Position numbers and translations under genes: made by a program. A stretch of DNA of 64,000 bases from Verrucomicrobiia bacterium. GTDB lineage: Bacteria > Verrucomicrobiota > Verrucomicrobiia > Palsa-1439. How positions within the stretch are numbered: the stretch's first letter is position 1; each line of letters begins with the position of its first letter. Under the pieces are notes generated by a model, which did no database searches, had not been told where the DNA came from, and saw only the letters and a program-made list of their open reading frames with translations. The stretch lies in contig JBEKLX010000001.1 of the NCBI GenBank assembly GCA_050008795.1, positions 3,455 through 67,454 of the forward strand, read 5' to 3'. Positions 32,089 through 32,791 of this stretch are shown here, piece after piece.

Positions 32089-32142
32089 GCACCTTGCGTG
32101 ATACATCGGATACCGATGTATCGACCCGATTCAACGCTGATA
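32089..32142. repeat. 54-bp direct repeat, copy 1 (two palindromes), flanking the TA module
   Basis: GTGATACATCGGATACCGATGTATCGACCCGATTCAACGCTGATATATCAGCCA. Contains the 10-3-10 palindrome GATACATCGG-ATA-CCGATGTATC and the palindrome CTGATATATCAG. 52/54 identical to the copy at 32738-32791. Confidence 0.9.
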
Positions 32143-32156
32143 TATCAGCCACTTCG

Positions 32157-32432
32157 TCACTGACGATGGCCAATGAGTCGCTCGTATTGGTCGTGGTGGC
32201 CGATCCAAAACCACACGAGGTCATTGCCGGATTCCACGGCGACGGCCCGGTAATGAATCCCCACGCGGACCGACCAGAATCGGCCAACCTTCTTAAAGTG
32301 CAAAGATGGGTGAGCAGGATTTGTTTTCAGCAGGGCGAAGCAACGATCGGCAATTGCACGGCTATTCTCAGGAAGCTGGTGATAACCTACCCAGTAATCA
32401 CGACTGGCACGGTGCTTCACAGGTCGGTGCAA
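32157..32432 (-). CDS. Type II toxin, RelE/ParE family
   Basis: 91 aa matching the RelE/ParE fold pattern (...LHFKKVGRFWSVRVGIHYRAVAVESGNDLVWFWIGHHDQYERL). Overlaps the upstream antitoxin gene by 16 bp. Confidence 0.8.
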   Translation of the reverse strand: MHRPVKHRASRDYWVGYHQLPENSRAIADRCFALLKTNPAHPSLHFKKVGRFWSVRVGIHYRAVAVESGNDLVWFWIGHHDQYERLIGHRQ

Positions 32433-32593
32433 CGTCCTTCGCGCAGGTCGCGCAACGCGTTATCAGCCAGATGATCCAAGCGCCCCGCTGCGACGTCCCC
32501 TGCGAATTGCTCGTCCCACGCTTTAGCGTCAAACTCCTCGAACCAACTGCGGAACTTCGCCAATTCGTCCCGCGACAGATTGACAATCGCCAT
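32417..32593 (-). CDS. Putative antitoxin (addiction-module component) of the RelE/ParE module
   Basis: 58 aa from the ATG at 32593 (MAIVNLSRDELAKFRSWFEEFDAKAWDEQFAGD...) with an AGGAAA RBS and a TATATT -10-like element upstream. Short acidic helical protein, typical of antitoxins. Confidence 0.6.
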   Translation of the reverse strand: MAIVNLSRDELAKFRSWFEEFDAKAWDEQFAGDVAAGRLDHLADNALRDLREGRCTDL

Positions 32594-32737
32594 TGTGATT
32601 TCCTGGACAGTGCTCACGCGCCGAATATAGGACAGATGTGCCTTCCCCGCAAGTCTTCAGTGATTCCAGTAGTTTTGACGGCCACAACTCGGGGGCGACT
32701 GGTGAATCGGGGTAGAGCGCGGGGGCGGCTATCTCCC

Positions 32738-32791
32738 GTGATACATCGGATACCGATGTATCGGCCCGATTCAACGTTGATATATCAGCCA
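32738..32791. repeat. 54-bp direct repeat, copy 2
   Basis: GTGATACATCGGATACCGATGTATCGGCCCGATTCAACGTTGATATATCAGCCA, located ~145 bp upstream of the antitoxin start. Confidence 0.9.

Follow-up and report, generated by a model that had tools for sequence, protein, structure and literature searches.

We analyzed a 64,000-nucleotide (nt) stretch of a Verrucomicrobiia contig (JBEKLX010000001.1), hereafter the window, in which a ParE-like toxin-antitoxin (TA) gene pair lies between the essential genes murA and ffh and is bracketed by two copies of a palindrome-bearing direct repeat. It has the same sequence as ENA contig ERZ27250073:k141_102949 and as shorter Logan and JGI contigs, and its nearest named relatives are Verrucomicrobiia metagenome-assembled genomes (MAGs) from the SPRUCE peat site. 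Loci retrieved for comparison carry L numbers, and functional statements throughout are inferences from sequence. The features of the murA-ffh spacer are as follows.

32040 to 32071, minus strand: predicted intrinsic terminator of the TA transcript, a CCCCGAA-AGTG-TTCGGGG stem-loop plus a U-rich tail
32050 to 37035, no strand: accessory part of the murA-ffh spacer, missing in the sister lineage L024
32097 to 32154, plus strand: repeat copy 1 (toxin side), with box A at 32100 to 32122, a 13-nt spacer, and a collapsed box B (GCTGATATATCAGC) at 32136 to 32149
32157 to 32420, minus strand: toxin gene, 87 amino acids (aa), GTG start, ParE-like, RelE/ParE superfamily
32417 to 32617, minus strand: antitoxin gene, 66 aa, GTG start, product beginning VSTVQEITMAIVNLSRDELAKF
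32624 to 32652, minus strand: inferred TA promoter, -35 TTGCGG (32652 to 32647), 17-nt spacer, -10 TATATT (32629 to 32624)
32737 to 32794, plus strand: repeat copy 2 (promoter side), with box A at 32740 to 32762, a spacer, and a collapsed box B (GTTGATATATCAGC) at 32776 to 32789
32795 to 32815, plus strand: short stretch past copy 2 in which homology to L042 persists, marking where the shared TA unit ends on the right

The gene pair is a predicted self-contained ParE-like type II TA operon with its own predicted promoter and terminator. In line with the RelE/ParE assignment made in the initial annotation, the toxin scored above the curated cutoff of the Pfam family PF24732, ParE_like (27.0 bits against a cutoff of 24.4; E = 4.5e-6); it had no match in NCBIfam or PADLOC. 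Its homologues number 1605, mostly 84 to 92 aa long, and past the first residue it is the same in sequence as P0121/P0244. An AlphaFold2 model of the toxin gave the order H-H-E-E-E-E-H at low confidence (mean pLDDT, 65; pTM, 0.41), and a Foldseek search of the PDB with this model returned nothing at E < 0.1, the weak matches including HigB, YafQ, HP0894, and GraT; a fold could not be assigned from so weak a model. The antitoxin had no match in Pfam, NCBIfam, or the PDB, and its 66-aa length and N terminus are conserved in L042, L032, and L031. In the window, the antitoxin gene precedes the toxin gene in the same direction and the two overlap by GTGA; the same pair is found in those three loci.

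The layout at the TA promoter (-10 element, 6 nt, start codon) is conserved in L042 and in L032, which carries a homologue of 70% identity. Since the -10 element lies only 6 nt from the GTG start, the mRNA is probably leaderless or nearly so, and the promoter would lie inside the cassette. At the other end, a minus-strand terminator scan, alongside which RNA folding was also run, placed a hairpin of 10 pairs from 32071 to 32048; given this position, repeat copy 1 falls in the predicted 3' untranslated region (UTR) of the TA transcript. Hairpins with a CCCCGA...TCGGGG stem also stand at gene ends elsewhere in the window, making six in the series 3037 to 3058, 5099 to 5120, 6291 to 6309, 32048 to 32071, 40241 to 40260, and 56344 to 56362, and they are probably the standard intrinsic terminators of this lineage.

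The direct repeat that the initial annotation had reported around the TA genes is real, and its second copy was correctly placed at 32738 to 32791; the repeat is 58 nt long rather than 54, however, with 55/58 rather than 52/54 identical positions, and the first copy had been put 9 nt off (the corresponding 54 nt lie at 32098 to 32151, not 32089 to 32142). The start positions of the two copies are 640 nt apart. The toxin stop codon is 3 nt from the end of copy 1; copy 2 lies ~120 nt upstream of the antitoxin start and ~85 nt upstream of the -35 element. The sequence just outside the copies differs (CACCTTG versus ATCTCC on the left, CGTCAC versus GCTTGT on the right).

Each copy contains the 10-3-10 palindrome described previously, here termed box A (GATACATCGG-ATA-CCGATGTATC), which is exact at both 32100 to 32122 and 32740 to 32762. 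The second palindrome, originally given as 12 bp in each copy, did not hold up in that form: it is perfect over 14 bp in copy 1 (GCTGATATATCAGC) but carries one mismatch in copy 2 (GTTGATATATCAGC), where it is palindromic only over the 10-bp TGATATATCA. No further exact box A was found in the 64-kb window, none of 100 dinucleotide shuffles yielded a match, and a covariance model of the box family returned the same two sites only within the window. The arms are perfect 10- to 14-bp palindromes with 1- to 3-nt loops that fold better than shuffled sequence (z-scores of -4.3 to -6.2). By their anatomy, the 58-nt repeats are a composite element consisting of box A, a spacer of 13 to 16 nt, and box B (GCTGATATATCGCC-N-GGCGATATATCAGC), which is collapsed here to a 14-nt palindrome. 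A JGI contig with the same murA (L003, matching window positions 30414 to 32064) stops 33 nt before repeat copy 1; this end, together with the absence of the window locus from the returns of a metagenome pattern scan, suggests that the repeat breaks short-read assemblies.

We compared the spacer with those of relatives at two empty sites (L024 to L027, and L028) and at one additional occupied site (L042). The window and L024 are homologous up to 32049 and again from 37036, so positions 32050 to 37035 are accessory, with the terminator as the first element of the segment given that the homology ends at 32049. The terminator is followed by the box-flanked TA genes, ~410 nt of noncoding DNA, a 252-aa open reading frame (ORF; 33208 to 33966), and a gene for a 1006-aa protein (33932 to 36952). 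The TA module had earlier been placed at the edge of a lower-GC island, which is barely visible in composition (GC of 0.53 to 0.575 over the cassette versus ~0.58 around it, with a single dip to 0.485 at 33000 to 33400); the profile delimits nothing convincing, and we therefore defined the segment by comparison with relatives, which does reveal an accessory block. The 1006-aa protein is of a secreted type, with Peptidase_M64, PKD, BACON, and Ig-like domains. The 252-aa ORF is an orphan that matched only its own truncated copy among 5.8 billion proteins, and since it matches itself alone, an empty-site test through this right-hand neighbor found no TA-less junction.

Homologues of MurA at 95 to 96% identity led to TA-less contigs in which the distance from murA to ffh is 278 nt (L024 to L027) or 120 nt (L028). 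Neither a pattern search nor the covariance model detected a box in either of these spacers. In a third TA-less relative, the contig carrying P0001, the spacer is 561 nt long. Delivery of the TA genes through the repeats, as the initial annotation had suggested, predicts a single repeat at the empty site, and this was not observed at either site. The window departs from the empty site at 32049, leaving 47 nt before copy 1; the breakpoints and the repeats fall at different positions. Of the 40 ORFs examined between 0.4 and 57.5 kb of the window, none encodes an integrase, a transposase, or a RAYT, and the L001 gene table lists no integrase.

The occupied locus, L042 (JGI 3300012931), was reached via a member of the toxin's 90% cluster. 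It carries the TA genes in the same murA-ffh spacer and in the same orientation, the 252-aa and M64 genes being absent, and its cassette DNA is 88% identical to that of the window. Beside the toxin gene of L042 stands a full box B (GCTGATATATCGCC-A-GGCGATATATCAGC), exactly at the position of GCTGATATATCAGC in the window, with no box A; on the promoter side, L042 has GACACATCGAATACCGATGTGTC, a spacer, and a second full box B. The full box B at the same position implies that the short palindrome of the window is a collapsed box B, and since the 8-mer GATATATC is self-complementary and present in both box B arms, slippage between the arms can delete the center. Relative to the window, box A of L042 carries a symmetric pair of changes such that its arms stay complementary. 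A blastn alignment of window positions 32779 to 32815 with L042 positions 5630 to 5595 marks the right-hand end of the shared unit, and the L042 cassette is preceded on its left by ~190 nt of additional DNA. The repeat differs in length between the two lineages, at 58 nt in the window and 31 nt in L042.

The unit box B-toxin-antitoxin-promoter-box A-box B is thus an accessory module of the hypervariable murA-ffh spacer in this group of peat Verrucomicrobiia. The TA module is present with boxes in two lineages and absent, together with the boxes, from two others. Within each of the window and L042, the flanking copies are more alike than are the positional counterparts of the two genomes: both window copies contain box A and a collapsed box B, whereas both L042 copies have a full box B. 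This likeness within genomes indicates that the two flanking repeat copies evolve in concert, most simply by gene conversion between them.

Judged by ffh and the genes beyond it, the window groups as sister to the TA-less L024 (~92% DNA identity), with L042 and L028 more distant (~84%). The proportion of synonymous differences (pS) between the window and L042 is 0.231 ± 0.041 for the TA genes (synonymous substitutions per site [dS], ~0.27) versus 0.386 ± 0.015 for seven flanking housekeeping genes together, the dS values by gene being 0.38 for the 3' part of murA, 0.69 for ffh, and 0.36 to 0.64 for the other five. The cassette is thus old, having diverged by 12% at the DNA level, but most of its flanks are older. 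Since it is less diverged at synonymous sites than the flanks, these data hint at lateral exchange between related lineages, and in this respect the initial annotation was on the right track, as some lateral movement between related lineages is likely. The pattern fits exchange of the block between such lineages rather than recent delivery. Homologous recombination through murA, where divergence is lower as well, is one plausible route. Among the right-hand neighbors, at window positions 37082 to 40918, synonymous divergence from L042 spans a 2-fold range, from 0.36 in rplS to 0.69 in ffh, and this unevenness suggests a mosaic recombination history.

Several further observations concern the spacer and its surroundings. 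A 47-aa ORF with a hydrophobic N terminus (31895 to 32038) shares an ATGA overlap with the murA stop codon; the corresponding DNA is retained but out of frame in the sister L024 and is absent from L028 and L042. A conserved ffh leader (window positions ~37055 to 37070; also in L024, L028, and L042) reads (G/A)CTGATATTGCC and resembles the box B arm GCTGATATATCGCC, possibly by chance. The left flank of L042 (6440 to 6480, minus strand) contains GTCATCCTGAGC...GAGTCGAAGGATCTC, which may resemble a repeat of many environmental genomes. At 6238 to 6390 of the window, five perfect palindromes, the longest stem measuring 15 bp, occupy 150 nt upstream of an ORF (6442 to 7488) that had no Pfam match.

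Beyond the murA-ffh spacer, the boxes appear to form a low-copy family, GATAYATCG-N5-CGATRTATC. Exact box A with a free loop (20 specified bases) was found at 5 loci in a 596-Gb collection of species-representative genomes, where ~0.5 sites are expected by chance; all five are in peat Verrucomicrobiia MAGs, three of them in a single MAG (SPRUCE_226). The same pattern was found at 15 loci in metagenomes. In the clade sequence that had been sampled without bias (the window, L024, L028, and L042), boxes occur at the TA genes only, with two in 64 kb and none in 30 kb of TA-less relatives. All of the Verrucomicrobial copies are intergenic, and nearly all of them have an ATA/TAT loop. A literature search with the box arm sequences returned primers and unrelated matches only. 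Rfam yielded nothing at gathering score in the window and nothing at an E value of ≤1 in positions 31800 to 33300 or in eight related loci. Box patterns were not found in IMG/VR, nor was a cassette match found in PLSDB, and a viral or plasmid origin of the cassette was set aside on these grounds.

The arms of box B (GATATATCGC) differ from those of box A at 2 of 10 positions. Box A is often clustered with box B and a third type, box C (GAYACCTTCC), with variable linkers between them, and A-B-C clusters are present in L004 and L008. The orthologous regions upstream of miaA in L005 and L008 both have box A, but boxes B and C are found in only one of them. Synteny between L008 and L005 breaks exactly at box A, and in L008 a stretch of 170 nt upstream of miaA (2299 to 2468 and 2656 to 2824) is repeated beyond the A-B-C cluster at 72 to 77% identity. 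In L015, seven box-A-like palindromes lie in ~1 kb of noncoding DNA beside a PadR gene (1819 to 2669); the same region contains a tandem unit of ~290 nt (at 2104 and 2395), and the whole stretch had no Rfam match. In L016, a radical-SAM gene has box B on both sides. Compensatory double changes convert GATAC/GTATC to GACAC/GTGTC in L042, and similar changes occur in L015. Across 15 box variants, the count gave 92% paired and 22 double-sided changes, a result reached in 0/500 shuffles, although most members had been selected as palindromes and the statistic is therefore biased and partly circular. Three loci (L013, L014, and L019) were left out as coding or low-complexity chance contexts, and L020 is a giant near-perfect inverted duplication, most likely an assembly artifact, so its two box matches count as one site.

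These copies bear directly on how the repeats are to be read. The judgment that the repeats are not random is upheld, since they are dyad-symmetric sites of a recurring family for which a protein-binding role is plausible. The finding that the initial annotation itself had named as speaking against delivery, scattered copies unrelated to mobile genes, was made for the palindromes, which occur as single or clustered intergenic sites with no mobile genes beside them, namely those that precede miaA, those that neighbor genes of the radical-SAM, anti-sigma, and PadR types, and those that follow an ankyrin gene. The link between the TA genes and the repeats holds in part, in that they are present or absent as a block and the closest orthologue (L042) keeps the boxes, but TA homologues at 76% and 70% identity have none. 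Downstream of the 76% homologue, at positions 587 to 658 of L031, are two mutually inverted 9-3-9 hairpins with GTAGCGGCG-type flanks, which look like a classical pair of repetitive extragenic palindromes (REPs) from another organism.

A tblastn search with PadR proteins against all of the loci retrieved found PadR genes only in L015, L029/L030, and L018. The proteins match PF03551 with E values of 4e-19 (L015), 7e-11 (L018), and 9e-21 (L029), and a box stands at the start of each gene, as listed here.

L015, 1819 to 1841: box with A-type arms, overlapping a -10-like CATGAT and the start region
L018, 200 to 222: box with arms GATACATCGG, ending 5 nt before the GTG, in a GC-rich stretch
L029, 5945 to 5967 (same site in L030): variant box between a -35 TTGACA and the ATG

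L029 was retrieved through MurA and hence had not been selected for boxes. With the covariance model, both Verrucomicrobial PadR genes proved to have another box of matching type directly behind their stop codons (L015, 1462 to 1484; L029, 5495 to 5517). With a box at the start and another after the stop codon, these two PadR genes have the same bracket layout as the TA genes; the paralogues of L015 and L029 carry boxes of different types.

We tentatively favor, at somewhat less than even confidence, the interpretation that the boxes are cognate PadR-type protein-binding sites with a boundary or looping role and not insertion scars. Under the mechanism that we infer, the boxes would be bound by a dimeric winged-helix protein of the PadR type encoded elsewhere in the genome, and bound boxes at both ends of a small gene unit would act as boundary or looping sites that insulate or repress the antisense-oriented TA genes between murA and ffh. 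The near-identical box repeats would also be places of gene conversion, and they would be neither attachment (att) sites nor target duplications left by TA delivery. As a block, the module would probably have been acquired, lost, and passed between related genomes through homologous recombination in its flanks.

A number of observations weigh against this interpretation. Three genomes provide the PadR association, and two of these entered the comparison on account of their boxes; the 64-kb window has no PadR gene, and no PadR relatives were found in IMG/VR. The boxes (GATAYATCG-N5-CGATRTATC) do not match the operator of Bacillus subtilis PadR, which recognizes CNTGNA-N6-TNCANG (PMC5728393). 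The promoter-side box does not overlap the TA promoter and the other box is in the 3' UTR, such that neither occupies a classical operator position. Moreover, the compensatory changes fit selection on hairpins at least as well as selection on protein sites, and the seven boxes per 1 kb in L015 and the box insertions and deletions between L005 and L008 resemble mobile REP-like elements.

These last points lead to the main rival explanation, that of a REP-like hairpin family, which we consider rather unlikely. By this account, the boxes are hairpins similar to REPs or to bacterial interspersed mosaic elements (BIMEs), spreading and decaying in intergenic DNA and possibly mobilized in trans by a Y1 (RAYT-type) transposase. 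They would act at the nucleic acid level, as stem-loops at 3' or 5' ends of RNA or as DNA hairpins; the TA genes would merely lie between two of them, and the PadR link would be incidental or reflect co-option of the boxes by a PadR protein. The perfect short-looped palindromes with their strongly negative folding z-scores, the pairing preserved through compensatory changes, and the location of copy 1 in the TA 3' UTR, upstream of the terminator, are all consistent with it, as are the clustering of different hairpin types with variable linkers, the gain or loss of boxes B and C between orthologous L005 and L008, and the tandem amplification in L015. The ATA/TAT loop common to nearly all Verrucomicrobial copies suggests copying, and a variable TA-bearing spacer with REPs has a precedent in ccdO157 between folA and apaH, as summarized in PMC3184786. 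Set against these are the very low copy number in unbiased sampling and the presence of only 3 exact copies in the SPRUCE_226 MAG, the lack of a GTAG-type 5' motif in the boxes and of a RAYT among the window ORFs examined, and the partly circular nature of the covariation statistic. The same arms also occur before the PadR gene of L018, in a GC-rich stretch, and in other promoters (L010/L011), which is unexpected of a lineage-specific selfish repeat. Compared with PadR-bound boundary sites, REP-like hairpins explain the compensatory changes, arrays, and insertions and deletions better but the low copy number and the recurrence in L018 worse.

It is doubtful that the boxes are recombination sites and that repeat-TA-repeat is an integrated cassette, whether integron-like or bounded by attL/attR, with its recombinase encoded elsewhere. 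Such a cassette would account for direct repeats that bound exactly the conserved unit in two lineages with differing outer flanks, for the joint presence or absence of boxes and TA genes, for concerted ends (as expected from recombination between them), for a cassette less diverged than its flanks, and for the other small genes bracketed likewise. However, neither of the two TA-less relatives compared has a single-box empty site, the breakpoints relative to the empty sites are outside the repeats (32049 in the window; ~190 nt of extra DNA on the left in L042), no integrase was found among the ORFs examined, attC features are absent, the repeat differs in length between lineages (58 versus 31 nt), the 12% divergence at the same locus makes any movement old, and no plasmid or viral contig matched. 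Taken together with the absence of inverted ends, these results do not support the earlier proposal that a site-specific or transposition event delivered the TA genes via the repeats.

Palindromes near the promoter normally serve type II TA operons for autoregulation, and the boxes are conserved beside the TA genes in both TA-carrying lineages, but it is highly improbable that the boxes are operators of the TA operon bound by the antitoxin or the TA complex, and autoregulation through them is unlikely, given that the same boxes are found at many TA-less loci, that ~85 nt separate the promoter-side box from the conserved -35 element downstream of it and the second box follows the toxin stop codon, that the TA homologues at 76% and 70% identity lack boxes, and that the antitoxin has no recognizable DNA-binding domain.

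If the boxes are indeed boundary sites of the PadR type, the TA module would be coupled to a host regulator, or insulated by it, via the boxes on either side, a layout that also surrounds the regulator's own gene and that differs from textbook TA autoregulation. A bolder extension, which we regard as improbable, is that the box-gene-box units (TA, padR, and radical-SAM) are modules of an undescribed box system that has a PadR-family protein as the partner of the boxes, analogous to REP-RAYT, with box type covarying with the PadR paralogue; the boxes would then serve both as insulating or looping boundaries and as seams for conversion, loss, and exchange in the absence of a dedicated integrase. 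Regardless of mechanism, the locus is a clean natural example of a chromosomal TA module persisting in a hypervariable spacer between two essential genes, with the whole block present or absent, the bounding repeats evolving in concert, and synonymous divergence below that of the flanks. It also carries a warning for annotation, in that a direct repeat around TA genes is not automatically an integration scar.

Among known systems, composite units flanked by miniature inverted-repeat transposable elements (MITEs) or insertion sequences (ISs) likewise have two copies of a short repeat around a passenger gene, but the copies here are direct rather than inverted, with no terminal inverted repeats, no outer target-site duplication, and no transposase found. 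A target-site duplication or MITE was rejected on the basis of the 58-nt direct repeat, the lack of inverted ends, and the differing outer flanks.

Integron cassettes are small gene units between attC sites, and TA modules are common cargo in chromosomal integrons. The locus resembles them in having a small, promoter-bearing gene unit between direct copies of a palindromic site, with TA genes as the cargo. Unlike attC, however, the repeats contain two separate perfect palindromes rather than a single long imperfect one (57 to 141 nt) with extrahelical bases, and they lack an R''/R' core pair (RYYYAAC...GTTRRRY): an ATTCAAC is present at 32128 to 32134, but its complementary GTTRRRY partner is absent. 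Nor did we find intI/attI or a cassette array, the unit being single, and an integron cassette was rejected on the anatomy of the sites together with the lack of an integrase among the genes examined.

A closer parallel in genomic setting is the ccdO157 TA module in the variable folA-apaH spacer of Escherichia coli, where REPs are reported for roughly half the isolates (Mine et al. 2009, summarized in PMC3184786). Both are type II TA modules in a hypervariable housekeeping spacer, present, decayed, or absent among close relatives, with palindromic repeats nearby; what sets the present locus apart from the case as summarized there is that a matched pair of boxes brackets the TA genes, that TA-less spacers are box-free, and that the boxes evolve in concert.

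In the PadR family, autoregulation through palindromic operators is described for B. subtilis PadR (PMC5728393) and LmrR (PMC4534193). The boxes share with these operators a dyad symmetry spanning about two helical turns over the regulator's own promoter, and their putative partner is likewise a dimeric winged-helix protein, but they differ in half-site sequence and spacing, in the second box after the regulator's stop codon, and in their occurrence in 3' UTRs and arrays. As in REPs and BIMEs, the boxes are short extragenic palindromes that form clusters with variable linkers and are gained or lost between related genomes; they are, however, perfect palindromes whereas REPs are imperfect, have no GTAG-type 5' motif and no Y1 transposase in the ORFs scanned, and are present at very low copy number where this is measurable, compared with the hundreds per genome typical of REPs. 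In REP/RAYT systems, the RAYT gene is characteristically flanked on both sides by cognate palindromes (PMC3333891), and the same arrangement is found here around PadR genes and the TA module, with the difference that the box-bracketed gene encodes a PadR-family winged-helix protein rather than an HUH enzyme.

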